Origin: Chitinophaga pinensis
GTDB taxonomy: Bacteria > Bacteroidota > Bacteroidia > UKL13-3
DNA: 64,000 nt
Direction: 5' to 3'
NCBI GenBank assembly: GCA_945870425.1
Contig: CAMBSD010000009.1
Coordinates: 50,180-114,179 of the forward strand
Shown: positions 3,323-54,158 of the stretch, one piece after another
How the letters are laid out: each line of letters starts with the position of its first letter
Position numbering within the stretch: the stretch's first letter is position 1
The notes under the pieces: generated by a model
The model's input: only the letters and a program-made list of their open reading frames with translations
Databases searched by the model: none
Told to the model about the DNA's origin: nothing
Made by a program: the position numbers and the translations under genes

Positions 3323-3880
3323 ATGAAAGACTTTACCGAGCAGGAAATCATTTTAGGATGTGTAAAGGAAGACAGTCGATTTCAGCGATTGCTTTTTGAA
3401 AAGTACTACTCCAAAATGTTTGCTATTTGTATAAGGTTTTCGCAAAATGAAGAGGAAGCAAAAAATATTTTACAAGAAGGATTTATAAAAGCTTTTGAAG
3501 GGATAAAAAAGTTTAAAGCTGAAAGTAGTCTTAATACATGGTTAAGCAGAATTATGGTTAATCATTCCATTGACTGCTTGAAGAATCGAAACAAAAATTT
3601 GTTTTCATCCATTAGTGAAAATATGCTCACGATACCTGATTCAACTGAATTTGAAGAAGAATTAGTTAAAGATCTTTCACCAGAAGAGGCTCTGGATTTA
3701 CTTCAAAAATTACCCGATGGATACCGAACCATCGTTAATTTATATGCAGTGGAAGGACTCAGCCATAAACAAATAGGTGAAAACCTTGGTATTTCGGAAG
3801 GGACATCAAAATCTCAGCTTTCAAAAGCTAGGACGTTTTTAAAAAAATTAGTTAATAACCTAAACACTTATGTTGTATAA
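3323..3880 (+). CDS. RNA polymerase ECF-type sigma-70 factor
   Basis: Region 2 (FEKYYSKMFAICIRF..EEEAKNILQEGFIKAF) and region 4 HTH (YRTIVNLYAVEGLSHKQIGENLGISEGTSKSQLSKARTFLKK). Confidence 0.85.
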   Translation: MKDFTEQEIILGCVKEDSRFQRLLFEKYYSKMFAICIRFSQNEEEAKNILQEGFIKAFEGIKKFKAESSLNTWLSRIMVNHSIDCLKNRNKNLFSSISENMLTIPDSTEFEEELVKDLSPEEALDLLQKLPDGYRTIVNLYAVEGLSHKQIGENLGISEGTSKSQLSKARTFLKKLVNNLNTYVV

Positions 3881-5177
3881 CAACGAAGATGAGTATTTAA
3901 AAATATTTGCTGGCAAAATTAGCAAGTTAAACCCGAGGCAGCCAAGCAGCGATGAATGGACTGCCTTTGAAATGGCTTATCGTAAACATAAAAAACAAAA
4001 CAAAAAATGGCCATTGCTGCTATGGTTTGGCATTTTCTCTATGTTATGTGTGGGTCTGATTTATTTTTCAAATAATCAAAAAATTTCCATTGAAAAAGCA
4101 ATAGGAAATAACAGTTTAAAGGCTACATCTGAAAATAACGCAACAATAAATAAAAATACGAATAAAAAATTAATTGGAAATACTACCACTAAAGCTCAAA
4201 ATTTAAATCAAAATAAGGTTATAGATAGAAATGTTTCAGACTATGAAAACAAATCAAAACAAATTGAGAAATTGAAAAATCCTTTAAATAAAAAAGAAAT
4301 AATAAAAGTTTTGTCTAAGGTAGAACTATTATCTGAATCAAATACAAATAAGCCAGATGTAAAACTTAATGATAACATTTTGTTTGAACTAACTAGTCTA
4401 AAATTAAAGTCTTTTCAAATTTCAACTCCTCTAAAGAAAATAATTACAAGTACAAAGCCGACAAACAATGCGATAAATTCTATAAAAACAAATGTTTCGA
4501 ACAACATAACAAAATCAAGTCAAATTGCAAAATATTTTGAATTAGGAATATGTATTCAAAATAATAATTTCAAACAACTTGATTACCCATCTGATCAATT
4601 TTTTAAAGGAGTTGGATTGAATGTTGGTATGCATTTACAAAACAATTGGAGTATCAATTTAGGTATAAGCGCCTTGTATTTAAACCAGGTAAAAATAGAT
4701 AAGTTTGTTTTTCAAACAGAAGAACAACAAATAGAAAGAATCGATACTACCATAAAATATAACAATACTTACAACAGATTGATGATGGAGTTTGATACTG
4801 TTTTGAGTTATAAAAATGTGAATCATGAAGGTAGTTCCATCTATAAAAACGACATTGTATTTATACACTTACCATTTCAAGTTCGATATCATATTGGCAA
4901 TGAAAAACGAAGTGTTTATGTTGCAATTGGAGCATTAGGAACTATTACTTACCAATCACAAAACATTACGAAAAATATAGGTTTAAGTAATGAGGGTAAT
5001 CAATCTAAAGATACTTACAGCTTTATGTTTGCACCTACAATAGGATTGGGATGCCACCAAAAAATCTATAAAAATTGGGCACTTCATTTGGCTTCAAATT
5101 ACTCCAAATATTTAAATAGTAATCTTAATCAAACAAATACTTTTCAATTACAAACCGGTTTAAAATATAATTTCTAA
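3870..5177 (+). CDS. putative anti-sigma factor fused to an Asn/Lys-rich linker and a C-terminal outer-membrane beta-barrel-like domain
   Basis: Overlaps the sigma gene by 11 nt. It has a short cytoplasmic N-terminus, one TM helix (WPLLLWFGIFSMLCVGLIYF), a ~150-aa N/K-rich low-complexity stretch, and a C-terminal ~220 aa with alternating-hydrophobic beta-strand pattern ending in ...LKYNF. Confidence 0.5.
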   Translation: MLYNNEDEYLKIFAGKISKLNPRQPSSDEWTAFEMAYRKHKKQNKKWPLLLWFGIFSMLCVGLIYFSNNQKISIEKAIGNNSLKATSENNATINKNTNKKLIGNTTTKAQNLNQNKVIDRNVSDYENKSKQIEKLKNPLNKKEIIKVLSKVELLSESNTNKPDVKLNDNILFELTSLKLKSFQISTPLKKIITSTKPTNNAINSIKTNVSNNITKSSQIAKYFELGICIQNNNFKQLDYPSDQFFKGVGLNVGMHLQNNWSINLGISALYLNQVKIDKFVFQTEEQQIERIDTTIKYNNTYNRLMMEFDTVLSYKNVNHEGSSIYKNDIVFIHLPFQVRYHIGNEKRSVYVAIGALGTITYQSQNITKNIGLSNEGNQSKDTYSFMFAPTIGLGCHQKIYKNWALHLASNYSKYLNSNLNQTNTFQLQTGLKYNF

Positions 5178-5189
5178 AAAACAAAGAAT

Positions 5190-7448
5190 ATGAAAAATAA
5201 CGATTTAAAATCCATGATGAGCAAGAAGCTTGCATTAATGCTTCAACTTATTCTGCTATCATTCACAACAGTTTTGGCTCAATCTTGCCTTCCTAAATTT
5301 GACTATTACAAATCAGCCAAAAACATCGTATTTGTAAACCAATCAACAACTCCATTTGGTTTAGGCAACTATATTTGGAATTTTGGTGATGGCACTCCCT
5401 TAACTATTAACAACGAACATCAATTACACCACAAGTATGCCCAAACAGGCAGTTATAAAGTATGTCTTATAGATAGTTTTTGCCCAACAAATACTATGTT
5501 TTGCGATAGCATAAAAGTGGAAAATAGTAAAGAGGTTCAGGCTAGGTTTACTCATCAGGATTTCGGCAATGGATCTTTTATTTTCTTAAACTCAAGCAGT
5601 GCATCTTTATATCCAATTATTAGTTATCAGTGGGATTTTGGTGATGGTAACTTTAGTAATGACAGGGATGTAAAACACAATCATCACTCATCAGGACAAT
5701 ATATTGTTAGTCTGACAGTTTTAGATAGTGGTAATAATTTCGATATTTTTTACGACACAGTGAATACTTCAGTAATAGCTCCCTGCTATGCCGACTTTAA
5801 TTTTCAATATGTAAACAACCAGTTTGAATTTCAAAATCTTAGTTCTAGCCCAGACAGCATAGTAAGTTACCAATGGTATTTTGGAGATGCATCGAATGTT
5901 AATACGCAAGCCAATCCAACACATAGTTATAATGCTATTGGAAATTATACAGTTACTTTGGTAATGAAAAGCGCAACATGCAGCGACACCATTCAAAAAA
6001 CAATTTCTCAACCTGACACAGCATTATGCAAAATCAATTTAAGCAGCGCAATAAATTTCCAAAAAGTATTATTTACGGCTAAGTCAAATTCACCTGACCC
6101 CATTTTGGATAAATTCATAATTGATTATGGAGATAATAACCAAGAATTTATGGAAACCAATAGCATTTCACATATTTATAATGATACTGGGGTGTATAGA
6201 GTTTGCGTTCAGTCGTTTGTTAATCTTTGTGGGGTTGATCTTATTCAATGTGATACCATAAGAATTTCAAGTCTAACAGCCATTTGCAAAGCTGGTTTCG
6301 AGCTTTATGATTACGAATACACAGCTTCACTATACAATTCATCAATTGCTTATGGAAGTTCGGCACCTACTAACATAACCATTAATTGGGGAGATGGATT
6401 GATTTATTCGGGAACAGACAGTTTAGGCGTATTTAACCATACTTATGCCAATGAAGGTAGTTATAATGTTACTTTAACAATGAATAATTTAGGGGGCTGT
6501 AGTGACTCATTAACTAAAATTGTAAGTGTTGGACCAAACTATGTGCTAAGCGGAAAAATAACACAAGGAGGTTTACCTGCTTATTATGCTGGGGTATATA
6601 TTTATAGTTACGACTCAACATCTGGCTTATTATACAAAAGCACTTATACAAGCACGGACAATAACGGAAATTATGAGATAAAACTCAAAAAAGGTTATTA
6701 TCTGGTACAAGCGGATTTTGCTTTTGATCCTTTCAATAATGGATTTTATTTACCAACCTATTATAAAAATAAATTGAATTGGGATTTGGCAGATGTTCTT
6801 TATCTTCAAGCCAACCGAAGTGGCATTGATATTGACCTAATACCATATATTTATGACTCTACAGGCAACGGTAGCATTTCAGGTTTTGTTAAATATGGGA
6901 CGGGTGTGGTTGATCAAAATGGACCAATACAAGAAGGTAAACCTGCAGAAAAAATGTTAGTTTATTTAGTAGATGCAAGTGGCAAAACTGTAGCATATAC
7001 ACACACAAATACAGAAGGCCTTTTTGATTTCGGAAAAGTACCAATGGGTAATTACAAAGTATGGGGCGAAATGGCTGGAAAGCAAACTTTACCTGCCCAA
7101 GCCTCTATTAATAGTGCTGTAAATAATGTTTCTGGCATCAAAATAATTATTGGTAAAAACAGTTTGACAAGTTCAATTGGCCAGACAGCTAATATCATTG
7201 AACCTATTGAAGCCTCGATATATCCAAATCCAAGCAAAGGTCTTTTGAATATAGAATGTGCTAGCAAAAATTTAAGTTCAGTTCAGGTTTTTGATATAAC
7301 AGGACAACTAATACTTGAAAGCACTAATGAAAATGAAAATTCAAAAATGAGTTTAGATATTTCAAATAATAAAAATGGTTTGTATATAATTAAAATCAAT
7401 TCGGTTGAGGGAAACAGCATCATCAAAAAAGTTCTTAAACAAGACTAA
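5190..7448 (+). CDS. PKD-domain surface protein with T9SS type-A C-terminal sorting domain
   Basis: Signal peptide. Five PKD-like units (WNFGDGTP, WDFGDGNFS, WYFGDASN, DYGDNN, NWGDG). C-terminal 'IYPNPSKGLLNIE...VFDITGQLILES...NGLYIIKINSVEGNSIIKKVLKQD'. Confidence 0.8.
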   Translation: MKNNDLKSMMSKKLALMLQLILLSFTTVLAQSCLPKFDYYKSAKNIVFVNQSTTPFGLGNYIWNFGDGTPLTINNEHQLHHKYAQTGSYKVCLIDSFCPTNTMFCDSIKVENSKEVQARFTHQDFGNGSFIFLNSSSASLYPIISYQWDFGDGNFSNDRDVKHNHHSSGQYIVSLTVLDSGNNFDIFYDTVNTSVIAPCYADFNFQYVNNQFEFQNLSSSPDSIVSYQWYFGDASNVNTQANPTHSYNAIGNYTVTLVMKSATCSDTIQKTISQPDTALCKINLSSAINFQKVLFTAKSNSPDPILDKFIIDYGDNNQEFMETNSISHIYNDTGVYRVCVQSFVNLCGVDLIQCDTIRISSLTAICKAGFELYDYEYTASLYNSSIAYGSSAPTNITINWGDGLIYSGTDSLGVFNHTYANEGSYNVTLTMNNLGGCSDSLTKIVSVGPNYVLSGKITQGGLPAYYAGVYIYSYDSTSGLLYKSTYTSTDNNGNYEIKLKKGYYLVQADFAFDPFNNGFYLPTYYKNKLNWDLADVLYLQANRSGIDIDLIPYIYDSTGNGSISGFVKYGTGVVDQNGPIQEGKPAEKMLVYLVDASGKTVAYTHTNTEGLFDFGKVPMGNYKVWGEMAGKQTLPAQASINSAVNNVSGIKIIIGKNSLTSSIGQTANIIEPIEASIYPNPSKGLLNIECASKNLSSVQVFDITGQLILESTNENENSKMSLDISNNKNGLYIIKINSVEGNSIIKKVLKQD

Positions 7449-13742: not shown

Positions 13743-14723
13743 GTGGAATGGAAAAACTACAATTATGAGTTTGAAGGCATTGATAAATACCTTAATCGCA
13801 TAGCAGAGAAAAAAACTCAGCTAGATGCTTTGCGTCCATTTCCGATGGCCTCCCTCAAAAATATAAAAGAAAATTTAACCTTGGAGTGGACGTATAATTC
13901 GAATAGTATCGAGGGAAATACTCTAACCTTGCAAGAAACCAAAATGGTAATTGAAGAAGGTTTTACCATCAAAGGGAAATCCTTGAGAGAACATTTTGAA
14001 GCCGTTAACCACCATGATGCCATTGAATTTGTTGAAAGTCTTGTTAGTAAAGATCATAAAATAAGTGATATGGATGTTTTAACAATTCATAGTTTGGTCT
14101 TGCAGAAAATTGAAAAGGAATTTGCAGGGAGATACAGAAATGCTGGTGTTAGAATATCAGGGGCAAATTTTGTTCCCCCAAATGCCCTAAAAGTGGATGC
14201 TTACATGACTGATTTAATCGATTGGTTAAATGATGACAGTATTTTAATTAATTCAGTTGTGAAGGCAGCCATTTTCCATCATCGTTTTGTGTGGATTCAT
14301 CCTTTCTTTGATGGCAATGGAAGAACGGTGAGGCTCGCCTATAATTTATACCTGATGAAACTTGGCTTTCCTCCTGCCATTATTTTAAAAAACGACAGAA
14401 AAAAATATTACGATTCGCTGAACAAAGCCAACAATGGAGATTATTCTAAATTGGTGCTTTTGGTTCTGCAAGCCCTAGAACGTTCAATGGATATCTATTT
14501 AGGTAATTTAACGAATACATACGATAATTACCAGCCAATATCGAATATAGTTAGTGAACCTGGCGTGCCTTATGGCCAAGAATATATTAGCTTATTGGCA
14601 AGGCAAGGAAAGATTGATGCCTTTAAAGAGGGTAAGAATTGGTATACTTCAAAAGATGCTCTGAATAGTTATATCATAAAACGTGAAAGAAAAAGAAGAA
14701 TAAAACCAAACCCAGAAAAATAA
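13743..14723 (+). CDS. Fic/DOC family protein (AMPylation-type Fido domain)
   Basis: Canonical Fic motif 'HPFFDGNGRTVR' (HPFx[D/E]GNGR). GTG start. Confidence 0.85.
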   Translation: MEWKNYNYEFEGIDKYLNRIAEKKTQLDALRPFPMASLKNIKENLTLEWTYNSNSIEGNTLTLQETKMVIEEGFTIKGKSLREHFEAVNHHDAIEFVESLVSKDHKISDMDVLTIHSLVLQKIEKEFAGRYRNAGVRISGANFVPPNALKVDAYMTDLIDWLNDDSILINSVVKAAIFHHRFVWIHPFFDGNGRTVRLAYNLYLMKLGFPPAIILKNDRKKYYDSLNKANNGDYSKLVLLVLQALERSMDIYLGNLTNTYDNYQPISNIVSEPGVPYGQEYISLLARQGKIDAFKEGKNWYTSKDALNSYIIKRERKRRIKPNPEK

Positions 14724-14757: not shown

Positions 14758-14843
14758 GCGGAGAGTTAGGGATTCGAACCACAGGTCCTGTAACAGACAA
14801 CAGTTTTCAAGACTGCCGCAATCGACCACTCTGCCAACTCTCC
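14756..14843 (-). tRNA. tRNA-Ser (anticodon TGA), class II with long variable arm
   Basis: Minus-strand reading: GGAGAGT acceptor, D-arm GCAG/TTGC, anticodon stem GCAGT/ACTGT with loop CTTGAAA (anticodon UGA), long variable arm, T-loop TTCGAAT, 3' ACTCTCC-G-CCA. CCA is encoded. Confidence 0.8.
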
Positions 14844-15403: not shown

Positions 15404-17611
15404 TTAGTTTAATACTACTTTTTGAGTCAATGTATTTTCTCCCACCATCATTTTGATGAAGTAAATACCACTATTTAGGTTCAAGTCAGATTTACTAATC
15501 TGTAACTCATGCTTACCTTCTGATTGCATGCCATTACTAAGTGTAGCAATTTGTTTACCTGCAATATCAAAAATAGCCACTTCAACATTTTCTTTAGTAT
15601 TTAAGCTATAGGACATAATAGCAGAAGAATTGAAAGGGTTTGGATATAAATTGAAACCTAATTGTTCTTTTAATAAGTCGTTGTTGATACTTGAAGCTAA
15701 ACCAACTTGCACTTCATCCAGGTAGAAGTTATTTCCACCTTCGTATGCCAATTCAATTCTGAATTTAACATTATTGAGTGCTGCACCAGTTGGCAATAAA
15801 GCACCATCCAATTTAACTTCTTTCCATTTGCTTTGATCAGCAGGAACAAAATAACTTGTATATGGAATAGGAGAAGTAGCTGAACTACCATTGGTTGCCG
15901 TAAATAATGCAGCACCTGAAACTACCTTTTTAGCTGTCCATGATTTACCACAATCAGTAGAATAAGAAACTCTTAACACATCAGGAGATGCAGTAATTGA
16001 CAATGGTGAGTATGTACCTTGTGCAAATGCATACTTGAATTTGAAGTATGGGGCAGCAGAACCTGACAAGTTGAATGATGGGGAAATAAAATAGAAACTT
16101 GTTTGAATAGCACTTGGATTAACAGGCAACATCATGCTATAATTTCCAGAGTATGGAACAGGTGTTCTAACCCAAGTTAATCTAGTTGAAGCATTTTCGT
16201 TTTCAAAATACCAACCATTTGATTGGAAGTCATTTAAATAGTCCCAATCTGCTGTATAAGCGCTTTTAGGCAAAGCAGCAGTAGCAGGTAATATGGTAAT
16301 GTAATTTTTATAAACAGTATCTCTTGAACCTGCTGGTCCTGTAACTTTCAATTTTACATCATATGTTCCCGGATTGGCATAAGTAATAGCAGGTGTAGTT
16401 GTGCTAAGCGCAGAACTGGTTGAAGCCGTGTATGTATTGGGTGTACCTCCGTCAAAAGTCCATTCCGCAGAAGTTATAGTACCATTATACGAAGTTTGAC
16501 GGAAAGTAAAAGAGTTATTTGCACATGCAGTAGTTGATGTTGAAACATTGTTTAAAGTAATACCAAATGATGGGATAGGTGTGCAAGGAGTTGCGGCATC
16601 TAAAACACCTGTTCTAACTAAATTATCAGCTGACCATAATTGTCTTCTATAGTAATCTAATGAATAGAACATTCTAGCTCTTTGCTCTAATGTAAACATT
16701 TTACTAGAACAAGGACCGTCAAAATAATCCATAATATTTTCTTGTTGATCTGGTAAATCAGGATTATCATTTGAACAAGTATTATAAAGAGGTAAACCAC
16801 ATTTATTGCCTCTACCTGTGTTCACTTGATTTGTGCTGTAAGTAAAATAAGTTGGAGGAGTATCAAAAATATTATCACCATTGATATCACAACTATCCCC
16901 TTCAAACGGATGAGATAATCCAAACCAATGACCAGCTTCATGAGCACCTGTTCCATCAGCTATGAATTGACCAGCAACTAGCAATATACCATCCGTATTA
17001 GCGGGACTGAAGCCAACAGGAAATTGGGCAAAACCACCCACTTGTTTTCCTCCAGACAGAACCGAACTCGCCACCCAAATATTTAGGTATCTTTTGGTAT
17101 CCCATGAAATCAATTTTTTAATTTCATTAGTTGCATTTGAAGTTTGCTCCGTTTGAGTGCGGGTGATACCTGTGGTACAATTTCCCTGAGGATCTTTTTT
17201 TGCTAATCTGAATTCTATGTCACTGCAATCGGCTACGAGATGCTGAAAAATTGGACGAACACTAGCTGCTTTATTACCTTTATAAAAATCGTTCATAAGA
17301 TTAATAGTAGCCTGCACTTGCGCATCTGAAAGATTTTCTGAGCCATAGTTGTGCATAATATGTATTACAACTGGAATGATATATTTGGGCTGTGCACTTT
17401 TTTTAAGAATGTTAGATTTTATTTCATCTTTATGCATTTCGCGGTATTGAGACCAACCTTGTTCAAATTGGTTTCTTTGTTGAATGTACTCATCTGGGTT
17501 GAGGTCTCTCAACGACTGATTATACTGTGTGGTTCCGCATTTAGGAGTTTGTGCACTGGCACCAAGGCAGAACACAATTAAAGCACTTAGAGTAATAATT
17601 ATATTTTTCAT
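15404..17611 (-). CDS. metzincin (M43/pappalysin-like) zinc metalloprotease with T9SS C-terminal sorting domain
   Basis: Signal peptide. 'HEAGHWFGLSHPFEGDSCD' (HExxHxxGxxH). C-terminal 'LYPNPFNSSAIMSYSL...VAIFDIAGKQIATL...GIYFIKMMVGENTLTQKVVLN'. Confidence 0.8.
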   Translation of the reverse strand: MKNIIITLSALIVFCLGASAQTPKCGTTQYNQSLRDLNPDEYIQQRNQFEQGWSQYREMHKDEIKSNILKKSAQPKYIIPVVIHIMHNYGSENLSDAQVQATINLMNDFYKGNKAASVRPIFQHLVADCSDIEFRLAKKDPQGNCTTGITRTQTEQTSNATNEIKKLISWDTKRYLNIWVASSVLSGGKQVGGFAQFPVGFSPANTDGILLVAGQFIADGTGAHEAGHWFGLSHPFEGDSCDINGDNIFDTPPTYFTYSTNQVNTGRGNKCGLPLYNTCSNDNPDLPDQQENIMDYFDGPCSSKMFTLEQRARMFYSLDYYRRQLWSADNLVRTGVLDAATPCTPIPSFGITLNNVSTSTTACANNSFTFRQTSYNGTITSAEWTFDGGTPNTYTASTSSALSTTTPAITYANPGTYDVKLKVTGPAGSRDTVYKNYITILPATAALPKSAYTADWDYLNDFQSNGWYFENENASTRLTWVRTPVPYSGNYSMMLPVNPSAIQTSFYFISPSFNLSGSAAPYFKFKYAFAQGTYSPLSITASPDVLRVSYSTDCGKSWTAKKVVSGAALFTATNGSSATSPIPYTSYFVPADQSKWKEVKLDGALLPTGAALNNVKFRIELAYEGGNNFYLDEVQVGLASSINNDLLKEQLGFNLYPNPFNSSAIMSYSLNTKENVEVAIFDIAGKQIATLSNGMQSEGKHELQISKSDLNLNSGIYFIKMMVGENTLTQKVVLN

Positions 17612-25008: not shown

Positions 25009-25011
25009 AAT

Positions 25012-25929
25012 TTGAAATCCCTATTAAACAAAATAAAAAATGTAAAGAACTTGGTTCAATTTTACCGTGAGGAGCTAGATAAATCTAAAATCCTTGCTGC
25101 CAAATCTTTGATTAATAATTTCAAACATACGGATAGAGACTTTAATTTTTCAGACATAGAATTCTCTGTATTCTCCCAATGGGGTGATGATGGAATTATT
25201 CAATATCTTATTCATAAATTGAATATTTCAAATAAAACTTTTATTGAATTTGGCGTAGGAAACTATTTAGAAGCAAATACCCGATTCTTGCTAATCAATA
25301 ATAATTGGAAAGGTTTGATTTTTGATGGCTCTGAGAAAAACATAAACTTTGTTAAGAACGACTCTATATATTGGAAGTATAATTTGACTGCGAAACATTT
25401 ATTTATAACAAAAGAAAATATTAACCATGAAATAAAGAACTGTGGATTCGAAGGTGAGATTGGCATATTGCATATTGATATTGACGGTAATGACTTTTGG
25501 ATATGGGATGAAATTAACGTAGTAAATCCAGAAATTGTTATTATGGAATATAATAGTGTTTTCGGCAACAACGCTGCTATAACCGTACCTTATGACAAAA
25601 ACTTCTATGTTACAAATGCCCATTACAGCAATTTATTTTTTGGGGCATCTTTAAAAGCTATGTGCTTTTTAGCAGAAAAGAAAAACTATAGTTTTGTTGG
25701 CAGTAATACGAATGGAAATAACGCATATTTTGTTAGAAATGACAAATTAAAATCTATCCAAAAAATTACTGCTGATGAAGGTTATTACGAAATAAATGCA
25801 AGACAAAACAGAAACGAAAATGGGGAGCTAACTTTTAAATCAGACCATGAAATGATTAAAGCTTGCAAAGACTTGAATGTAATTAATGTAGAGACAAATG
25901 AGTTAGTTCCACTTAAAAATTATTTATAG
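25012..25929 (+). CDS. hypothetical protein (possibly FkbM-like methyltransferase)
   Basis: 'FIEFGVGNYLEANTRF' weakly resembles the FkbM motif. Tightly spaced with flanking genes. Confidence 0.3.
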   Translation: MKSLLNKIKNVKNLVQFYREELDKSKILAAKSLINNFKHTDRDFNFSDIEFSVFSQWGDDGIIQYLIHKLNISNKTFIEFGVGNYLEANTRFLLINNNWKGLIFDGSEKNINFVKNDSIYWKYNLTAKHLFITKENINHEIKNCGFEGEIGILHIDIDGNDFWIWDEINVVNPEIVIMEYNSVFGNNAAITVPYDKNFYVTNAHYSNLFFGASLKAMCFLAEKKNYSFVGSNTNGNNAYFVRNDKLKSIQKITADEGYYEINARQNRNENGELTFKSDHEMIKACKDLNVINVETNELVPLKNYL

Positions 25930-25933
25930 TAAA

Positions 25934-26827
25934 ATGTATCAATTTATTTTCAACCAATTAATTTCAAATATTCCTTTAAAGAGCTATAAATTCAAATTTT
26001 ATATGGTCTTAAGAAATTTAGTTGGGAAGTTTTTTAACCCTAAAATTTCATACAAATTAGGTGCATATGACATTATAATTCCAATAACTCACGACCTACC
26101 AATAAATATTAAAATCTATCCAGAATACAATCAAAACCTAGGCAAAATTGCTAAAGCTATTGAAGAAAAGTATCCATCAAATTCAATAATTGACGTAGGC
26201 GCAAACATTGGCGATTCAGTCGCAATAATTCATAAATATGTTAAGTCTCCTATTCTATGTATTGAAGGAAATGATTTGTATTTACCTTTATTGAGAGCAA
26301 ACACATCTTCATTAACAAATGTATGTATTGAAGATTCGTTTGTTGGTGATGAGGAAGTTGTTGTAAGCACGCACAGTAGCCTTGGCACGGCATTCATAGA
26401 GAAATCTTCTGGAGATGGAATAAAGGTAAAGAAAATTAGCACAATACTAGATAAACACCCAACTTTCAAGAATTCAAAATTATTCAAAACTGATACGGAC
26501 GGATTTGATAATAAAATTTTAAAAGGAGCTAAAGCCTATTTCAATGAAATCAAACCTATCATTTTCTTTGAATATGACCCTTATTTCCTATCAAAGCAAA
26601 ATGAAATCGGATATGATATATTTGGATACCTAAATAATCTAGGATATTCAGACTTAATGTTGTTTGAAAATACAGGCAGGTACATTTTTACTATAAATAC
26701 AGAACTAGAAAGAGAATTGGTCGAATTGCATAACTATTTTAATCAAAATGGTGAAAAATATATGGATATATGTGCAATTCATGAAAATGATAAAGATATT
26801 ATTCAAAAAATAATTAAACTTTTATAA
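25934..26827 (+). CDS. FkbM family methyltransferase
   Basis: 'IIDVGANIGDSVAI' FkbM signature. Confidence 0.6.
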   Translation: MYQFIFNQLISNIPLKSYKFKFYMVLRNLVGKFFNPKISYKLGAYDIIIPITHDLPINIKIYPEYNQNLGKIAKAIEEKYPSNSIIDVGANIGDSVAIIHKYVKSPILCIEGNDLYLPLLRANTSSLTNVCIEDSFVGDEEVVVSTHSSLGTAFIEKSSGDGIKVKKISTILDKHPTFKNSKLFKTDTDGFDNKILKGAKAYFNEIKPIIFFEYDPYFLSKQNEIGYDIFGYLNNLGYSDLMLFENTGRYIFTINTELERELVELHNYFNQNGEKYMDICAIHENDKDIIQKIIKLL

Positions 26828-26852
26828 TTTTGATTATTAAACATTTCCTATT

Positions 26853-29357
26853 ATGAAAAACCGTTTGCCAATATTCATCATTTTTATTTGGCTACTAGTA
26901 AGTAATAGCTATTCTCAATTTTGTCCATATGCTAGCTTAACAAGTAAACCAAATTTGGTTGTTAATGGAGATTTTGAATTAGACAATACTGGCTTTACAT
27001 CACAATATACTTACATTCCTAGCACAACTTTGTTATATGAAGAGAAATATACTTTTACAACAAATGCCAATTTAGTTCATTTTGCGTGGACGGGACCATC
27101 AAGAAGTGGTACAGGAAAATTTATGGCAATAAATGGTGCAGGCATACCTTTATTTTTTTGGAATGAAACAATCACTGTAAAACCAAATACGAATTATCGA
27201 TTTTCTACTTGGTTAAAAAATCTTGCCATAAAACCTCAATATCAAGGTTTAGCGCCTGCGCAAATTGAGCTCTGGATAAACAATCAAAAAGTATTTAATA
27301 CAATTACTCTTGTTGATTACCCAGATGTTTGGAAACTATTAGATACAATTTGGAATTCTGGTTCAAATACAACAGCTCTACTAGGAATAAAAACCGTTTC
27401 TACAAATGGTAATGGTTGTGATTTTGGTATGGATGATGTTGAGTTCAAAGAATGTTCTTGCACCTCAACATCATTATCGGCCACAAACTCAACCACCATA
27501 TGCTTAGGAGACACAATACAGCTTAACGCTACTCCAGGTTTAAGCGGTGGAACATACCTTTGGATTCCAGGATTTACGTTAAATGATTCTACCTCAAAAT
27601 CCCCCAAAGGGAGGCCATTAATAAATACAACTTATACTGTTACCTATACATTAGCAGGATGTTCAACAACTACAAGTGTTCCTGTTAACGTTACCCAAGT
27701 GTCCTCCAATGCAGGCTTAGATAAAAATATATGCTTAGGTGATAGTGTTCAGTTAAATGGTTCAGCAATTGGTGCTTTTAAATGGAAACCCACTACTTAT
27801 ATGAGCGATTCGAATCTTATCAGTCCATATGTGAAGCCACCCAGCAGCATTAGCTATATTTTAACATCTAGTCAAGGAGCCTGTTCACGTGTTGATACTG
27901 TTAAGGTAAACGTTTCGAATGCTTCTGCTTATGCTGGTTTAGATAAACATATTTGCTTGGGAGATAGTATACAATTAGACGGGGTGGCAACAGGCAGTTT
28001 TACTTGGCAGCCCACCACTGCTATGAGCAATCCAACCCAAATAAAACCCTATGTGAAACCCGTAAGTGATACCAAATATATTTTAAAAGCTAGTTTTGGT
28101 TCATGTGTTCAAAGAGATACCGTTGATGTGCTTGTCTCTCAAGTTTTGGCCAATGCGGGCAAGAATCTAACCGTTTGTTTAGGTGATAGTGTGCAATTGC
28201 AAGGCACGGCATTGGGTAATGTTACTTGGCAGCCAAGCACCTTTTTAAATAACCCAAGTTTAACCCAACCTTATAGCAAACCCAAAACAAATATTGATTA
28301 TATATTGACGGCTACAAATGGCACATGCGTGCAAAAAGATACGGTAAGCGTAAGTCTGTTTACCAATGCCTCGGCCAATGCAGGTGCAGATCAACGTATC
28401 TGTTTAGGGTCAGGAGTATTCCTGAATGCAGCTACAGCAAATACTTATGAGTGGACACCGCCCTATTTTATTACCAATAGCAATTCTCAAAACCCATTTG
28501 TAAATCCATTAGTAGATACTACCTATTATTTAAAAATTAGTATGGGCTCTTGTTTTGGATTTGATACTGTAAAAGTAAAAGTAGTGCCTATACCAAGCGT
28601 AAAAGCAAGTGATGACACAAAAGTTTGCTTGGGAGACTCGGTGCAGCTAAATGCCCAAGTTAGCAGCCCTGCTAAATGGGTTTGGAGATCACAAGTTCAA
28701 TTATCAGATAGCAATATTCTAAATCCAAAAGCTAAAATCACGCAGAGTTCTATTTTTATAATCATAGCTAGTGATACCTCAAAACTGTGCTATGCTTCTG
28801 ATACAATGATTGTAGACCCATATCCAGTGGTAAAAGCAATTTATTCTGCAGATACATATAGTGGCGAAGGTCAATTAAAACCTGTTTTTGATAATACCAG
28901 TCAGAATGCCACAAAATACACTTGGTTGTTTGGAGATAGTTTGAACAGCAATTCAAAAGACAAGAATCCAGATTTTACATTTATAAGACCAGGCGTTTAT
29001 AAAGTAAAGCTAATTGCACAAAACGATTATGGCTGTAAAGATTCAATAACGAAAGAATTTACCGTATTGCCTGCGGGTAAATTATACATACCAAATGCTT
29101 TCACCCCAAATGGAGATATGTTTAATGAGGTGTTTAAGTTTGTATATCCTGAATCAGCTTACAAAAAGGTGGAGATGACGATTTACAATCGCTGGGGTGG
29201 CTTTATTTACGAAACATCTATGCCAGGCGGCAAATGGTGGGATGGAACATTTGAAGGAACTCCATGCTCGGTGGATGTATATTTCTATGTAGCTAAGGCC
29301 ATTAAAATTAATGGTGAAGTAAATGATTATCATGGTACGATAACTTTGCTGAGATAA
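26853..29357 (+). CDS. gliding motility-associated C-terminal domain (T9SS type-B/CHU_C) surface protein with CBM-like N-domain and ~8 tandem repeats
   Basis: Signal peptide. N-terminal 'NGDFELDNTGF...DFGMDDVEFKEC' (CBM4/9-like). About 8 repeats of ~75 aa 'ICLGDSVQLNG...W(Q/K)PTT..S'. PKD unit 'WLFGDS'. C-terminal 'LYIPNAFTPNGDMFNEVFKF...TIYNRWGGFIYE' type-B sorting domain. Confidence 0.8.
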   Translation: MKNRLPIFIIFIWLLVSNSYSQFCPYASLTSKPNLVVNGDFELDNTGFTSQYTYIPSTTLLYEEKYTFTTNANLVHFAWTGPSRSGTGKFMAINGAGIPLFFWNETITVKPNTNYRFSTWLKNLAIKPQYQGLAPAQIELWINNQKVFNTITLVDYPDVWKLLDTIWNSGSNTTALLGIKTVSTNGNGCDFGMDDVEFKECSCTSTSLSATNSTTICLGDTIQLNATPGLSGGTYLWIPGFTLNDSTSKSPKGRPLINTTYTVTYTLAGCSTTTSVPVNVTQVSSNAGLDKNICLGDSVQLNGSAIGAFKWKPTTYMSDSNLISPYVKPPSSISYILTSSQGACSRVDTVKVNVSNASAYAGLDKHICLGDSIQLDGVATGSFTWQPTTAMSNPTQIKPYVKPVSDTKYILKASFGSCVQRDTVDVLVSQVLANAGKNLTVCLGDSVQLQGTALGNVTWQPSTFLNNPSLTQPYSKPKTNIDYILTATNGTCVQKDTVSVSLFTNASANAGADQRICLGSGVFLNAATANTYEWTPPYFITNSNSQNPFVNPLVDTTYYLKISMGSCFGFDTVKVKVVPIPSVKASDDTKVCLGDSVQLNAQVSSPAKWVWRSQVQLSDSNILNPKAKITQSSIFIIIASDTSKLCYASDTMIVDPYPVVKAIYSADTYSGEGQLKPVFDNTSQNATKYTWLFGDSLNSNSKDKNPDFTFIRPGVYKVKLIAQNDYGCKDSITKEFTVLPAGKLYIPNAFTPNGDMFNEVFKFVYPESAYKKVEMTIYNRWGGFIYETSMPGGKWWDGTFEGTPCSVDVYFYVAKAIKINGEVNDYHGTITLLR

Positions 29358-29536
29358 TTATTTTTCATTATCAATAACTACAGAAAAATTGCGTTCATTG
29401 CAGAGGGCACAATGAAATTACTTTATTAATCCTTGTTCTATTTCTCAATTATATTTACTGATAAAGCATAGCTTTTCAGACAAATAGCGATAAAACCAAT
29501 AATTAGCTTATCTTTGCAGCTTAATTTATAAATTCT

Positions 29537-31372: not shown

Positions 31373-31383
31373 TCAAAATACAT

Positions 31384-31424
31384 AAAACAGAAAAGCTCGC
31401 CAATTGGCGAGCTTTTCTGTTTTA
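31384..31424 (+). terminator. rho-independent terminator after helicase
   Basis: AAAACAGAAAAGCTCGCCAATTGGCGAGCTTTTCTGTTTT, a perfect palindrome with U-tract. Confidence 0.7.
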
Positions 31425-31516
31425 TGGAATAATCAACACTTTTTTATTAATTGATTTTAACTTATCACTTAAAATAATACCTTGCATTTACGTTTTACTT
31501 TAATAACAGAAATAAT

Positions 31517-34500
31517 ATGAAAAGAATCTTTACACTCACATTTTCATTATTGATATTGTTTTGTAATTCTACAATGGCTCAAAATGCCATACAAGCAGGT
31601 AACAGACAATATCCAATACCTAACAGGAATCACACTAAAAGTTCTCCAATTTTCACAGGATTGAACAAAACTAGCACTTGCTCGGCTGATACCATTGAAT
31701 ATACTATCTACAAAGCAACTGCACTAAATACCATCAACATAAATTCAACCACAAGCGCTGGAACGGGATACCAGTGGTTTCCTGCACCACAAGCCATTAC
31801 AGTTAGTGGATTCAACTTTTTTGCTTTCCTAAGCAGTTTGGCTGGTATCCAAAGCCAATCTGTAACACTTAGTATTTACAATGCAGGTATTGATTCAATG
31901 CCAAGTGGTGCTGCTCTTAGAAGTGTTACCATGAATATTGACACTGTTTTGGGTAATGGAAGTTTAGGAGCCATACTCAAAAGAGCTATTTTCACTACGC
32001 CTGCCACCATCACTAATCCAAATGGTTATGTATTAGCAATTGAAAATACAAGTGGTAATCAACTAAATGTAGTTACTAATAGTTGGAATAATTTGGATGG
32101 CGGAAGTGAATGGTGTGCATCTGTCAAATTATTTGGAACAAATACAAGATCATATAATATAAATATTGGCGGCACTCCTTATGATGCCGACTTTTTAATG
32201 TTTCCAATCGTTACATATTCACTTACAGCAGATTTTACTCACACACCAGCTTGTTTTACACCAGGTAACCCAGTTACTTTCACCAATACATCATCAGCAA
32301 TTAATAATAGCAGATTTTATAATCTAAGAAAACTTTTTGGAAATTATCCTCTTACTTACACATGGGACTTTGGTAATAGCACTGGAGGAAATGCGGTGGA
32401 TACGAATGTAATTTATGCTTCAGGTGGAACTTATAACGTAAAATTAACCGACTCCATAGAAGGTTATTATAGATATTGCACAGATAATAAATCTTTAGGC
32501 ATCAGCTCCTCTGCGCCTGCGCCAAATGCTGGAGGAGGAGGAAGCTACTGTATAGGTTCAACATTGAGTTTGACTTGTGCCACTGTGACTGGATCTACTT
32601 ACTATTGGACTGGGCCTAATGGCTATACATCCACCGCTCAAAATCCTACAAGAACAAACTTTAGTAGTTTAATGGCCGGACAATATGATGTTATGACCAT
32701 TAATGGAACTTGTTCATCGGCTGTCGCAAGTGTAATTGTTGCAGCCGTTTTACCACCAATCGCTACAAGCAATACACCCGTTTGTTTTGGTCAAACATTA
32801 AACCTAACAGCGTCATTAGTGCCAGGTGGCACCTATGCATGGACTGGTCCAAATGGATTTACGTCAAGTGCGCAAAGTCCTAATCGAACAAATTTGACTG
32901 CGGCTGATACCGGATTATACATCTTAAATGTTTCCTTGCCTGGATGTTCTTTCAACCCAGTCACAACTAGAGTTGCTGGATTGGCTATACCTGCAACACC
33001 AACCGTTGGCAATGCTCAAAGTTTATGTGAAGGTGAAGGTCTATCATTAAGCGCTCAAGGAACCTATGTAAATCCTACATTCAATTGGAATGGGCCAAAC
33101 AACTATTCTTCTAATATACAAAATCCAAGCATTAGTGCTACAACACTTAGCAATTCTGGCACATATAATGTTACTGTTACGGTGAATGGATGTACATCAT
33201 CTAGCGCAAGCACCAATGTTACAATCAATCCTAAACCAAGTGCACCAACAGTAGGAAGCAATGGTGCTTTGTGTGCTGGTCAAACTTTAAGTTTATCTGC
33301 AAGTGCTATAGCCAACGCAACTTATAATTGGTCTGGCCCAAATAATTTTACTTCAACACAACAAAATCCAAGCAGAATCAGCATGACAACTGCTGACGCA
33401 GGTTTGTATTCAGTAATCGCAACTGTAAATGGTTGTAGCTCTGTATCCGCTAGCATTACAATCAGTGTAAGTGCATCTGCACCTTCACCAACAGCATCAA
33501 GTAATTCACCTGTATGTGCAGGACAATCATTAACCTTATTTGCTTCAAATGTAGCAGGAGCCAATTATTCATGGACTGGACCAAACGGCTTTACTTCTAA
33601 TGCACAAAATCCAGTAATTACCAATGTAACTTCAGCTGGTGCTGGTGCATATAGCGTTACTGCAGCTACTGCCACTTGCGGAACTTCTCCAGCTTCTACC
33701 GTAAATGTTACAATTAATGCTTTAACAATTACACCTATTGCATCAAATGCAGGCCCTGCATGCGAAGGCTCATCAACTAGTTTAAGCATTACTACCATCA
33801 ATGGAGCAACCTATGGATGGGTTGGGCCAAATGCCTACGTTTCGGCTAGTCAAAATCCTAATTTGAACAATGTAACCAAAGCAATGGCTGGAACTTATAC
33901 TGTAACCATCAGCACTTCACAATGCGGTGCGGTTGGTTCATATTCTACAATATTAGCAGTAAAACAAAAACCTGTTGTTACCTCGGTATTTAATAACTCC
34001 CCACTATGTGCAGGCGATACTTTATAAGTTTCTGTTAACGGAACAAATACTAGCAGCAGTGCCACCTTTGCATGGACAGGACCAAATAGCTACGCATCAA
34101 GTGGAAAATCAATTGTAATAAATAATGTTAGTTCAGCTAATGATGGTACCTATTCGGTTACTGCGACAGATTCAGGTTGTACATCTGCCTCTTTCAGCAC
34201 TGGTTTTATTGTTAAACCAAAACCAACAGCACCTGTAAGTTCAAACAGTTCACCGCAATGCGAAGGTACTAAACTTGATTTAACTGCATCATTAATTAGT
34301 AATGCTACTTATGTATGGTCAGGACCAAATAATTTCACTAGCACACAGCGCAACCCGAGCATCAATGCCATAGCTAAAGCTGGCGAAGGTACCTACAAAG
34401 TATACTGTGTGGTGAATGGATGTAAATCGGTTGAAGAGGCTACCAATGTAGTCATTAATATAAAACCGGCATCACCTGTTATTTCTAACAACAGCCCTTA

Positions 34501-35461
34501 CTGCGAGCGTAGCAACGTGAGCCTAACAGTGCCTGCGGTTTCGGGTGCTACTTATAGCTGGACAGGACCAGTCAACTTTACTTCAACCAATCAAAACGTT
34601 TCATTGATTTCGGCTATTCCAGTTCAATCAGGAACCTACAGCTGTGTAATGACTGTGGCAGGCTGTGTAAGCGATGCAGGTACTACTGAATTGTTAGTTA
34701 CTCCATTGCCAACTGCTCCTACCCTATCAAGTTTCCCTGTTAACAAATTATGTGCTGGAGATAGCTTGCAACTATTCGCTTCTTTTACTGATTTAGCAAC
34801 ATACAGTTGGACTGGCCCAGCAGGATTCGTTTCGGCATTGCGCAATCCAACCATCAAAAATACCAACCAAGCTTATTCAGGAACGTATTCTGTAGCCATA
34901 ACCAAAGGTGCCTGTACTTCGCAACCAGCTAATATTACCATCACCGTGAACCCAACTCCAAATACAGGCAATATCTCAGGATTGGCTAATGTATTTAAAT
35001 TAGATACGGTTTCATACATGGTGAATGGATTACAAGGATCGTCATTCGATTGGAATGTAACGGGTGCTAATATAACGTTGGGTGCGGGTTCAAACAAAGT
35101 ACAAGTAAAATGGTTGACTGTGGGCACTGAAACCATTAAAGTAAAAGAAACATCTGACCAAGGTTGTTTGGGTGTTGAAAAATCATTTGCAGTAAACGTA
35201 GTACCTACAACAAGTGTGAATGAATTGCATGCCAATGCTGATGTGGTAGTATATCCAAACCCAATGAATGAATCCTTAACTGTGAGTATGTTGAGCAATC
35301 ACAAATTGCAATCAGCCACTATTTATGATTTAATTGGAAATGAAATCATCACTAGCAATAAATCAGATATAGATGTAAGTCATTTGCAAAATGGTGTTTA
35401 CGTTATCAGAATAAAAGATAATAATGGAAATACTTATAGCCAAAAAGTAATTAAAAACTAA
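31517..35461 (+). pseudogene. giant T9SS (type-A) surface adhesin with at least 13 tandem ~80-aa Ig-like repeats, interrupted by one in-frame TAA at 34028-34030
   Basis: A single frame is open from 31517 to 35461 except TAA at 34028. The track splits it into 31517..34027 and 34409..35461 (GTG). Repeats 'C.G..L.L.A.....(Y/F).W(S/T)GPN(G/N)(F/Y)(T/S)S..QNP'. C-terminal 'VYPNPMNESLTVS...IYDLIGNEII...NGVYVIRIKDNNGNTYSQKVIKN'. Confidence 0.75.
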
Positions 35462-35482
35462 GGCTAAAAATATTCTTAGACA

Positions 35483-35514
35483 AAGGCTGCTTCTTCAGAG
35501 GCAGCCTTTTTTTT
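35483..35514 (+). terminator. rho-independent terminator
   Basis: AAGGCTGCTTC-TTCA-GAGGCAGCCTT followed by TTTTTTTT. Confidence 0.6.
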
Positions 35515-35632
35515 AGATTAATTTTCAGGGAAAAGATAATTGAGATTTTAATGAATCGTTCAGAAATGCTTCAAAAAAATGTCGAAAATTTCTTCCCGAA
35601 CTTCTTTATATATTCTGATGCATGCAAAACAA

Positions 35633-36835
35633 TTAGTTGCTAAACTCATGACCCATTTTGTCTCTTTTGGTTTCAAGGTATTTTTTGTTGTGCGGATTCG
35701 ACTTTACTTCCAAAGCCACATTTTCAACTATCTCGAGTCCATATCCAATTAAGCCCGCACGTTTGGTAGGATTATTGGTCATCAATCGCATTTTGGTTAT
35801 GCCAATATCTCTCAATATTTGTGCACCTACACCATAGTCGCGTTCATCCATTTTAAAGCCCAATTTAATATTGGCTTCAACAGTATCAAAACCTTGCTCT
35901 TGCAGCTTATAAGCTTTTAATTTATTGACAAGCCCAATGCCTCTGCCTTCTTGGTTTATGTACAATACCACACCTTTACCTTCTTTCTCAATCATCTCCA
36001 TAGCCTTTTTCAATTGATCGCCACAATCGCAACGCATACTATGGAAAATATCACCTGTAACACAACTGCTGTGCACGCGCACTAATACGGGCTCTGATTC
36101 TTTCCACTCCCCTTTTTGTAATACCACATGCTCCTCGCCTGTATCTATTTGTCGGTAGGCCGAAAGAACAAAGTGTCCATATTCAGTTGGCATATCCACC
36201 GAAATCACACGTTGGATTAAACTTTCTTTTTGCAACCTGTATGAAATCAAATCCTTGATGGTTATTAATTTCATGTTATGCTTTTCGGCCACCTCCATCA
36301 ATTGTGGCAAACGAGCCATTGAACCATCTTCATTCAAAATTTCCACAATACATCCTGCAGGTTCAAAACCTGCCAAACGAGCTAAATCAATAGCAGCTTC
36401 TGTATGTCCAGCCCTGCGAAGCACACCTTCTGGCTTGGCTTTTAATGGAAATATATGTCCTGGCTTGCCTAATTCTTCTGGCTTTGTAGCAGGATCAATT
36501 AAAGCTTGTAGGGTTTTAGCCCTGTCTTGTGCAGAGATTCCCGTAGTACAGCCCTTACCTAATAAGTCAACAGAAACAGTGAAAGGTGTTTCGTGTAAGG
36601 TGGTATTATCATTCACCATCAACTCCAATTTCAATTCTTCACAACGACTTTCAATCAGTGGCGCACATATCAGTCCCCTACCCTCTTTAGCCATAAAATT
36701 GATGATTTCTGGAGTAACATTACGCGCGGCAGTTACAAAATCACCTTCGTTTTCACGGTCTTCATCATCAACCACTATCACCATTTTACCATTTTTTATG
36801 TCTTCAATGGCTTCTTCAATTGTATTAAATTTCAT
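35633..36835 (-). CDS. ribBA: bifunctional 3,4-dihydroxy-2-butanone-4-phosphate synthase / GTP cyclohydrolase II
   Basis: 'DEDRENEGD' DHBP synthase motif. '[18 protein letters not shown]' GTP cyclohydrolase II zinc-Cys motif. Confidence 0.9.
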
Positions 36836-51818: not shown

Positions 51819-54071
51819 TTAGTACAACATTACTTTTTTAACGATTGATTTGTTTTCGTTTTCAACCAATACTACATAAACCCCTTTTTGGCTCATGTTT
51901 ACAGCATATGTATCGCTGCTAGTGGTACCTTCGCTTAGCACGCGGCCTAGCATATCGGTTACCGTTACTTTAGCTTTTGATGCATTGTCTAATTGCACCA
52001 CTATTTCACTAGTTTCTTGGTTAGTATAAATTCTAGCAAAATCAGTGTTCAACTCATTCACACCATTAATAATACCTGGCATATAAGTCATATTGGTAAA
52101 GTTGATACCATACACCCACAATGGATTATCAATAAATGGATTTCTGTTTTTCTGAATCGAAGAAATGTATTCATGACGCGCTATTTCTAATTCACTAGGT
52201 GGATCTTGTCGGTGCCATTTCATTAACACAGCAGTATCTTGTGCAAATTTACCACCGCTTAAGCCCCAATTTTGGCTGTAAGCACCATTGTAGCAAGTGG
52301 CCATATAAAACAAGGCACGGGCTAAATCTCCTTTGTGCTCATCGCGTGGTTCCCACACTGTTTTGTTGTTGGCATCTTTACCTAATTTTCCATATCCTGA
52401 AGGAGAAGTAGAGGTAAGGGTTACCACTTCACCAAAAGCATTGTTTGATCTAGTTAGGTTGGCATTGATTTGGTCGGTAGGAAACAAATGGTGCTGATCA
52501 TTATATTCAGGAAAATCTTTTCCATTAGGTGCTTGTGGCCACGTATTAGGATCCATATTGCTAGGCATCCAGCTTTGAGCGAATGTATGTTCTCTTGTCA
52601 ATGTTCCTGTTGAGCTTGATGCATTCCACCAAACAAATGGCTCAGAATAAACATAAGGCATATTGGTATACACGCAATACACGACTTTCTTACCACCAGT
52701 GGTATCTTTAGCCAACCAATTGTTTATTAATGTAGTGGTATAATTGCTATAAAAAATTGTATCGTGCGTATTGATTTTAGCTGAAAGCTCCGTTAAGAAA
52801 CTTGCCTTTCTTGGATCAAGACTTGCATAGTAGCTACCCGCATTTGAACCAGTAGTAGTTACAACCCCAGTCATAGGACTAGTGATTAAATAATTTTCGA
52901 AACTAGCAGGGCCATTGAAAGGAAATACAGCATAATGGTATACAGAATTAGCCAAAACATAAGTAGGTTTGAAAGTGGTATCAGCACCCACATAAGCCAC
53001 TTGCGCATCACCAATATTATCTCCTTTGCTATAGGTTTGACCATCCACGGGTACTTCATTTACAGCAGCATCATTTTTTCTTAATACCAGATACTTGTCT
53101 GACTTGTTTGCAGGTGGAAAAATATTTACAGAGTAAGTATATGCTTTAACGCCACCAAAAGTAATATTGTTTATTTTTTCGGTTGGTTCGGTAGCTAAAT
53201 TACCACCTATACCATACAACTTGAAGTTGAAAGGATTTTTTTCAGTATCTGAATTGCTAATGGCTAATGTAGCTTTTCTGGAACCTATGCTAGTGGTAGA
53301 AAAATTAACATTGAAGGTAGCTGATGAATTAGCCAATACATAAGCTGGAGCCGCACTCACAGAGAAATCAGCCGCAGCAGTGCCTGTAAAGTTCATACCG
53401 GTGATGAATAAAGTATCTAAGGTACCTTTATTCTCAATGGTAAACTGTGTGCTAGCTGTTTTTCCTATTAATGCAGTGCTACCATTTACCACATCAGCGC
53501 CTGCCAATTTCACATTGATGGTAGCCAAAGGCGATGCAGGTGCGCTAGCCAATGTAACATTATCTAAAGACACGTTTGAACCAGATTGTTTGTCAAGGTA
53601 AAAAAATCTGATATATCTGCTAGTAGATTTCGGGTTATCTGTAATGCTAGCAAATGCATTTGTTAAATCAGCTGCTGTGAAAGTGCGTAAATCAGTCCAT
53701 GTATTTCCATCTGCAGACTCTTGTGTTTTAAAAGTTCCAGCAAACGCAGGCGCTGGAGAAATACCAGTACCTTTAATATAATAACTTAAAGCACCCGGCT
53801 TATCTGTAAACCATATTTTCACATACTCACCTGTTTGGTCTAAGCGACATGCAGCATTGCCATCTTGGCCACTAGCATAGGTAAATCCTAGAACGGAGAT
53901 ATCCAACTTGGTTGACCAGCCTGTTGGGCCCGGATATTCAGGACCTGTAGGATTACTTGATGTAGACCCCGTAGGTGAAGGATTCACAAAGCTCCATGCT
54001 GTAGGCAATGTGGTTTGTGCATAGCTACTTAATGTCACAAAAATTGCCAAAATTGTAATAATTTTTTTCAT
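51819..54071 (-). CDS. secreted endonuclease I family (EndA/NucM/Vvn-like) nuclease with T9SS C-terminal sorting domain
   Basis: Signal peptide 'MKKIITILAIFVTLSSYAQ' (start set here). 'EHTFAQSW', 'DQHHLFP...N.TRSN' Endonuclease I catalytic motifs. C-terminal 'VTVTDMLGRVL...GVYVVLVENENKSIVKKVMLY'. Confidence 0.75.
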   Translation of the reverse strand: MKKIITILAIFVTLSSYAQTTLPTAWSFVNPSPTGSTSSNPTGPEYPGPTGWSTKLDISVLGFTYASGQDGNAACRLDQTGEYVKIWFTDKPGALSYYIKGTGISPAPAFAGTFKTQESADGNTWTDLRTFTAADLTNAFASITDNPKSTSRYIRFFYLDKQSGSNVSLDNVTLASAPASPLATINVKLAGADVVNGSTALIGKTASTQFTIENKGTLDTLFITGMNFTGTAAADFSVSAAPAYVLANSSATFNVNFSTTSIGSRKATLAISNSDTEKNPFNFKLYGIGGNLATEPTEKINNITFGGVKAYTYSVNIFPPANKSDKYLVLRKNDAAVNEVPVDGQTYSKGDNIGDAQVAYVGADTTFKPTYVLANSVYHYAVFPFNGPASFENYLITSPMTGVVTTTGSNAGSYYASLDPRKASFLTELSAKINTHDTIFYSNYTTTLINNWLAKDTTGGKKVVYCVYTNMPYVYSEPFVWWNASSSTGTLTREHTFAQSWMPSNMDPNTWPQAPNGKDFPEYNDQHHLFPTDQINANLTRSNNAFGEVVTLTSTSPSGYGKLGKDANNKTVWEPRDEHKGDLARALFYMATCYNGAYSQNWGLSGGKFAQDTAVLMKWHRQDPPSELEIARHEYISSIQKNRNPFIDNPLWVYGINFTNMTYMPGIINGVNELNTDFARIYTNQETSEIVVQLDNASKAKVTVTDMLGRVLSEGTTSSDTYAVNMSQKGVYVVLVENENKSIVKKVMLY

Positions 54072-54158
54072 ATGTATTTTTATTCGAACCGCAATCTTAC
54101 TAAAATAATTTGATGTATAAATTATCAAAGCATTATTTATGTTTGTTTTTACATAGTT

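Follow-up and report, generated by a model that had tools for sequence, protein, structure and literature searches.

A probable recent null allele of a conserved type IX-secreted surface-protein gene in a Bacteroidota assembly

In an assembly filed under Chitinophaga pinensis (GCA_945870425.1), contig CAMBSD010000009.1 carries a surface-protein gene that appears to be interrupted by a single stop codon. We analysed 64,000 nucleotides of this contig (positions 50,180 to 114,179; hereafter the window, in whose coordinates all positions are given). A program-made list shows two open reading frames (ORFs) there, 31517..34027 and 34409..35461, in place of what reads as one gene for a protein exported by the type IX secretion system (T9SS). 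The locus raises the question of what the in-frame TAA that closes the first ORF represents: a true mutation, an artefact of sequencing or assembly, a codon that is read through, or one state of a switch. Our analysis supports, with considerable confidence, the first of these: a conserved gene for T9SS cargo that has recently become a null allele in this strain alone, in other words an ordinary pseudogene. No new mechanism is implied.

Reading frame and encoded protein

Translation of 31517..35461 on the plus strand yields a single 1315-codon frame. Its only internal stop stands in the context GAT ACT TTA TAA GTT TCT, and codons 838-1314 run on without further stops or frameshifts. The original prediction of one continuous frame of about 1315 codons, broken by a single TAA and not by a frameshift, is thus borne out by translation. 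The stop itself lies at 34025..34027, codon 837, and not at 34028-34030 as it was first placed: the end given for the first ORF, 34027, already takes in the stop, hence the shift of three bases downstream. Likewise, the interval between the two ORFs (34028..34408) measures 381 nt and not 380. Past the stop, 477 codons remain open, for which the regional base composition gives a chance probability of about 1e-14. Since recognisable domains also lie in this part, the continuity of the frame is not due to chance, and the second listed ORF is no gene in its own right. The parts of the gene are as follows.

31517..35461, plus strand: whole surface-protein gene, 1314 sense-codon positions and the natural stop, broken at codon 837
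31517..31579, plus strand: signal peptide, amino acids 1-21, MKRIFTLTFSLLILFCNSTMA, then Q22; read from the translation by eye and kept in orthologues
31580..32230, plus strand: N-terminal beta-sandwich head (lectin- or jelly-roll-like), about amino acids 22-238
32231..32509, plus strand: PKD domain, about amino acids 239-331 (Pfam match to amino acids 242-311)
32513..34960, plus strand: array of 10 immunoglobulin-like (Ig-like) repeats of about 81 amino acids each, with two conserved Cys and one [FY].W.GPN per repeat
33971..34216, plus strand: repeat 7, amino acids 819-900, which bears the lesion
34025..34027, plus strand: premature TAA, codon 837; CAA (Gln) in relatives, C>T at 34025
34028..35458, plus strand: untranslated 3' part, codons 838-1314, holding what remains of repeat 7, then repeats 8-10, the last beta-sandwich and the sorting domain
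34409..35461, plus strand: listed ORF with an internal GTG as its start and without a signal peptide; an artefact of ORF listing
34973..35203, plus strand: beta-sandwich before the sorting domain, about amino acids 1153-1229 (AlphaFold2 model, predicted local distance difference test (pLDDT) score >90)
35249..35458, plus strand: T9SS type A C-terminal sorting domain, amino acids 1245-1314 (PF18962, TIGR04183)

A Sec signal peptide followed by Gln matches the 'Q-rule' of Bacteroidota. Besides the PKD domain and the sorting domain (Por_Secre_tail), Pfam returned repeated Ig_7 and Ig_2 matches; no Pfam family matched the N-terminal head (about amino acids 22-238) or the beta-sandwich at about amino acids 1153-1229. 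There are 10 copies of the [FY].W.GPN motif, one every 234-255 nt (about 81 amino acids), and the wider repeat motif (C.G..L ... [FY].W.GPN.[FY].S..QNP ... GC.S) spans the gap between the two ORFs, as had been proposed. A count of at least 13 Ig-like repeats had also been proposed. We found 10 with the W.GPN motif, and one arrives at 13 only if the head, the PKD domain and the domain ahead of the sorting domain are counted as well. The stop falls in repeat 7, six codons past its first cysteine (C831).

The assignment to T9SS surface proteins is confirmed by the type A sorting-domain scores: 50.3 bits for PF18962 in Pfam (cut-off 27, codons 1245-1312) and, with NCBIfam on the intact orthologue P0001, 42.5 bits for TIGR04183 (cut-off 23, amino acids 1245-1314). 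An AlphaFold2 model of codons 839-1314 consists of Ig-like domains (pLDDT 90.7) and ends in a beta-sandwich, a short linker and the sorting domain. Judging from domain matches and models, the intact gene is predicted to encode a rod-like, T9SS-secreted multi-Ig surface protein with a lectin-like head at its distal end.

Origin and age of the stop codon

The reconstructed full-length sequence served as query in a search for related proteins. The closest intact proteins are 1314 amino acids long, at 99, 99, 95, 89, 89 and 84% identity, followed by one of 1311 amino acids at 70%. A close set, made up of two 90%-identity clusters and near relatives, comprised 22 sequences covering the site, and all 22 have Gln there (...SPLCAGDTL-Q-[VI]SVN...). 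The only truncated allele among the 23 sequenced is the window's. At the DNA level the codon is CAA in L027, L028 and L029, whose 78-nt context is otherwise identical to that of the window, and also in the more divergent L003 and L009. An alignment of 49 distant orthologues (33-96% identity, 1311-1343 amino acids) has a sense residue at this column in every one: K in 20, R in 16, Q in 6, L in 3, S in 2, and V and I in 1 each. On these comparisons the lesion reads as a strain-private CAA>TAA (C>T) transition, ACTTTA[C>T]AAGTT, in non-repetitive surroundings; the 31-mer of the TAA allele is GATACTTTATAAGTTTCTGTTAACGGAACAA. The family as a whole, at 1311-1343 amino acids, is one of constant-length, previously uncharacterised surface proteins of uncultured freshwater Bacteroidota with repeats of the type known from GhpA (compared below). 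Sense codons in orthologues had been expected to make this an ordinary intact gene. This holds for the family, which is ordinary and uninterrupted in the other strains; in the present strain the stop nevertheless appears real.

The lesion also appears young. Over 3945 nt, the window gene differs from L027 at 24 positions and from L028 at 33, and its mismatch to L027 is 0.61% inside the gene against 0.64% in 8 kb of flanks. Because the gene has diverged from L027 no more than its flanks and no secondary lesions follow the stop, we regard the stop as recent. The ratio of non-synonymous to synonymous substitution rates (dN/dS, Nei-Gojobori), in the comparison with L003, is 0.092 for the part before the stop and 0.077 for the part after it, values that point to strong constraint over the whole length of the gene. 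Among the options offered by the original prediction, a recent nonsense mutation is the one favoured, by the Gln in 22 of 22 relatives, by the distance of only 24-33 nt and by the recurrence of the TAA in two assemblies.

That recurrence bears on the first rival explanation, in which the TAA is a consensus or sequencing error, or a minority variant fixed by the assembler, and the organism has CAA and an intact gene. All relatives carry CAA, the source is a metagenome assembly, and no error could be smaller than one changed base. Against this, the exact 836-residue product is recorded on three contigs, two of which were read as DNA. These two, a MEGAHIT contig in ENA (ERZ27280289, 277 kb) and a Logan contig (ERR5863100), are 100% identical to the window, TAA included, over 14.5 kb and 8.6 kb respectively, so that two assemblers agree, and substitution errors seldom survive Illumina consensus. 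A literature search on these run and assembly accessions gave no match. In metagenomes of the Joint Genome Institute (JGI), an exact degenerate-pattern scan around the site gave 0 matches and a protein-seeded scan found only relatives at 46% identity or less. The DNA had been described as highly repetitive and prone to mis-assembly or recombination. Tandem Repeats Finder reported nothing on it, and the repeat cores are 60-79% identical over 34-50 nt, the longest pair reaching 127 nt at 71%. Copies this divergent make mis-assembly, whether by collapse or by chimera, unlikely; constant orthologue length indicates that the array is not dynamic, and on these three grounds repeat-driven mis-assembly was ruled out. 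No second broken gene was seen in 64 kb. The other long ORFs and T9SS cargo genes of the window look intact, every other ORF scanned has full-length domain matches, and where further ORF pairs share a frame they are simply neighbouring genes of the ordinary kind. Errors are therefore not widespread in the assembly. TAA usage and the intact neighbouring ORFs likewise ruled out a generally poor assembly or an altered genetic code. We consider an artefact at this one base unlikely.

Two further explanations accept the stop and give it a function. If the interrupted gene still worked, either by low-level readthrough or suppression of the TAA or as two halves made separately, one would expect what is seen downstream, a perfectly kept frame that models as well-folded domains; a recent mutation would leave the same picture. 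The stop is absent from every relative, so there is no conserved recoding site. TAA ends 29 of 40 long ORFs and is the commonest terminator, and the RNA around the stop folds no better than shuffled sequence (z = +1.05). An Rfam scan of the whole window returned nothing but one tRNA gene, a normal tRNA-Ser(TGA). As for separate halves, the downstream one lacks a signal peptide, its first ATG comes only after about 200 codons, and it could not reach the T9SS alone. This explanation, which the original prediction had listed as low-level readthrough, is scarcely credible. The stop could instead be one state of a reversible on/off switch, that is, programmed phase or antigenic variation, as had also been suggested. 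Surface adhesins are common targets of such switching. In Flavobacterium psychrophilum, single reversible point mutations in gliding- and T9SS-linked genes are reported to serve phage defence (PMC9804748). Here, however, the change is a substitution in a non-repetitive context: the lesion lies in neither a homopolymer nor a short tandem repeat. The promoter region is not flanked by inverted repeats either, the only one upstream being a terminator palindrome. The off state occurs in 1 of 23 sequenced alleles. A substitution of this kind reverts at the ordinary mutation rate only, which is no programmed switch, and we judge this explanation very unlikely.

Several points weigh against a recent, genuine null allele. 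The ENA and Logan assemblies may share one sample, and with it the same reads, in which case they are independent in software only; this also lends some weight to an artefact. The TAA itself is known from assembled sequence and not from reads. Relaxed constraint past the stop could not be demonstrated: the changes private to the window number 4 synonymous and 2 non-synonymous before the stop and 2 and 4 after it (Fisher p = 0.57), counts too small to give more than a hint. Moreover, of the four non-synonymous changes after the stop, V972 and S1260 are shared with other sequenced relatives. Periplasmic retention and loss of function, proposed in the next section, are carried over from T9SS cargo of other species.

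Divergence from L003, a contig of a related species (metagenome-assembled genome (MAG) EUL_060, JBBALJ010000095.1), is uneven across 29292-35533. The helicase gene upstream of the surface-protein gene is 96.4% identical at the DNA level and the surface-protein gene 84.6%, and within the latter the synonymous substitution rate (dS) is 0.86 over codons 1-836 and 0.46 over codons 838-1314. Such unevenness suggests that the N-terminal two thirds of the protein turn over faster or have undergone recombination.

Consequences and genomic setting

The intact protein would be exported by the T9SS through its sorting domain and then be attached to the surface or released. All relatives have the signal peptide and the sorting domain on one polypeptide; in the window, the TAA at codon 837 parts them. 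The C>T change at 34025 would turn Gln837 (CAA) into TAA near the start of repeat 7, and translation would end after 836 residues. The resulting fragment would comprise the head, the PKD domain and six repeats, with Cys831 left unpaired. It would be expected to reach the periplasm and, lacking the sorting domain, to be unable to cross the outer membrane, ending up non-functional or degraded. The remaining 1.4 kb at the 3' end would give no useful protein, since it lacks both a signal peptide and an ATG close to the stop. In work on deletions of the C-terminal domain in Porphyromonas gingivalis and Flavobacterium johnsoniae, cargo without a sorting domain reportedly reaches the periplasm and is neither exported nor anchored. 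Retention in the periplasm and loss of function in the present case are plausible by analogy with such cargo.

Three flanking features define the transcriptional setting.

31381..31426, no strand assigned: perfect 46-nt palindrome with 23-nt arms and no loop (CATAAAACAGAAAAGCTCGCCAA/TTGGCGAGCTTTTCTGTTTTATG), between the DEAD-box helicase and surface-protein genes
35482..35509, plus strand: terminator-like hairpin with T-run, 21 nt past the natural stop
35633..36835, convergent: ribBA, the next gene

The helicase and surface-protein genes lie 144 nt apart. The palindrome between them, just past the helicase gene, looks like that gene's terminator. It was scored as a terminator on the minus strand and is probably active either way, a hairpin of terminator type set between the two transcription units. 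The surface-protein gene is monocistronic. Given the terminator-like hairpins on both sides and the convergent ribBA, no polar effect of the stop is expected. In L003 (2144-7850), 5.7 kb separate the helicase gene from the intact 1314-residue orthologue; this insert holds four minus-strand ORFs of 149, 635, 608 and 252 amino acids.

Elsewhere in the window, three further genes encode T9SS cargo of type A.

5190..7448, plus strand: four-PKD T9SS type A cargo protein, intact
15404..17611, minus strand: M43 metallopeptidase with PKD domain, T9SS type A cargo, intact
51819..54128, minus strand: Endonuclease I with Ig-like domain, T9SS type A cargo, intact

These three genes indicate that the genome relies heavily on T9SS secretion. 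No core T9SS components were identified among the window ORFs scanned; a T9SS encoded elsewhere in the genome is implied by four other sorting-domain cargo genes (5190..7448, 15404..17611, 26853..29357 and 51819..54128). An outer-membrane beta-barrel gene (3870..5177, plus strand) lies immediately upstream of the four-PKD cargo gene, and the two may form a cargo-and-anchor pair. The cargo gene at 26853..29357 belongs to a strain-variable cassette (24109-29452, compared with 2050-3937 of L027) whose flanks are 99.4% identical between the two strains. Positions 24620-29452 have no nucleotide match in L027, and the two genes that the cassettes share are 65% and 53% identical as proteins. The extra genes of the window's cassette encode an FkbM-type methyltransferase (25934..26827) and a protein with PKD and type B T9SS sorting domains (26853..29357); the cassette looks like a swapped glycan or surface-modification island. 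A Fic/DOC-family gene (13743..14723, plus strand) adjoins the tRNA-Ser(TGA) gene (14756-14843, minus strand), the only tRNA gene in the window.

Meaning of the allele and comparison with known systems

Drift or hitch-hiking may be taken as the default explanation of the TAA allele. By analogy with the phage resistance of Flavobacterium psychrophilum described below, selection for losing an exposed structure, for instance to escape phage, is plausible. A bolder combination holds that the family comprises miniature relatives of GhpA, fixed in length at 10 repeats, that catch particles or cells with a lectin-like tip in planktonic freshwater Bacteroidota, and that the TAA is a selected escape variant, ridding the cell of a phage receptor or a structure recognised by grazers, kept at some frequency and revertible by T>C. 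We hold this to be distinctly improbable as a whole. For annotation, the two ORFs belong together as a single pseudogene or null allele, of a T9SS cargo gene that is otherwise conserved, and should not be entered as two proteins. The allele is a natural knockout beside near-identical intact strains, a pair that could be used to probe the function of the protein if the population were followed over time.

In Flavobacterium psychrophilum, single reversible mutations in gliding- and T9SS-linked genes lead to phage resistance (PMC9804748). The likeness is that a single point mutation deprives one Bacteroidota strain of an exposed surface function that its near relatives retain (PMC9804748). The difference is that experiments there demonstrated both the reversion and the connection with phage resistance, while the window allele is known from its sequence.

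SprB and other large T9SS adhesins with Ig-like or PKD repeats share with the window protein a signal peptide, beta-sandwich repeats and a C-terminal sorting domain (10.1101/2024.01.29.577165). Matches to Pfam Ig_7 ('CHU_C associated') are also held in common. The window protein is far smaller than these adhesins and has no gliding-motility genes near it. Its sorting domain is of type A (TIGR04183), while SprB is linked with a type B domain.

The closest parallel drawn here is GhpA, by which Aureispira sp. CCB-QB1 forms a T9SS-secreted grappling hook, a heptameric rod of Ig-like domains with disulfides, O-glycans and a PorP/PorE-like GhpB/C anchor (10.1101/2024.01.29.577165), structures of which are in the PDB (9flp and related entries). 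The repeats are homologous to its stem repeats and of the same Ig-like type: phmmer gave 1502 bits over 15 stretches, and one repeat of the window protein matches at least 19 GhpA repeats. In a Foldseek comparison, the model of codons 839-1314 matched cryo-EM fragments of GhpA with E = 1e-28, a TM score of 0.65 and 25-32% identity. Both proteins have a Sec signal peptide, conserved repeat Cys and a C-terminal T9SS sorting domain, and GhpA is a Bacteroidota cell-surface rod with a distinct N-terminal tip, as the window protein is predicted to be. They differ in size, GhpA having 5898 amino acids and 52 stem repeats against 1314 amino acids and 10 repeats, and in the tip, a hook module of about 1400 amino acids in GhpA against a beta-sandwich of about 215 amino acids plus PKD in the window protein. 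The neighbours differ as well, the window gene being flanked by the DEAD-box helicase gene and ribBA with no PorP/PorE-like ghpB or ghpC adjacent. The heptamer and prey capture are features of GhpA; the window protein was modelled as a monomer. In build and in manner of working it resembles a small T9SS surface adhesin with repeats of the GhpA type. Because repeat number, tip and gene neighbours all differ, the window protein is not an orthologue of GhpA; it is its homologue at the level of the repeats.

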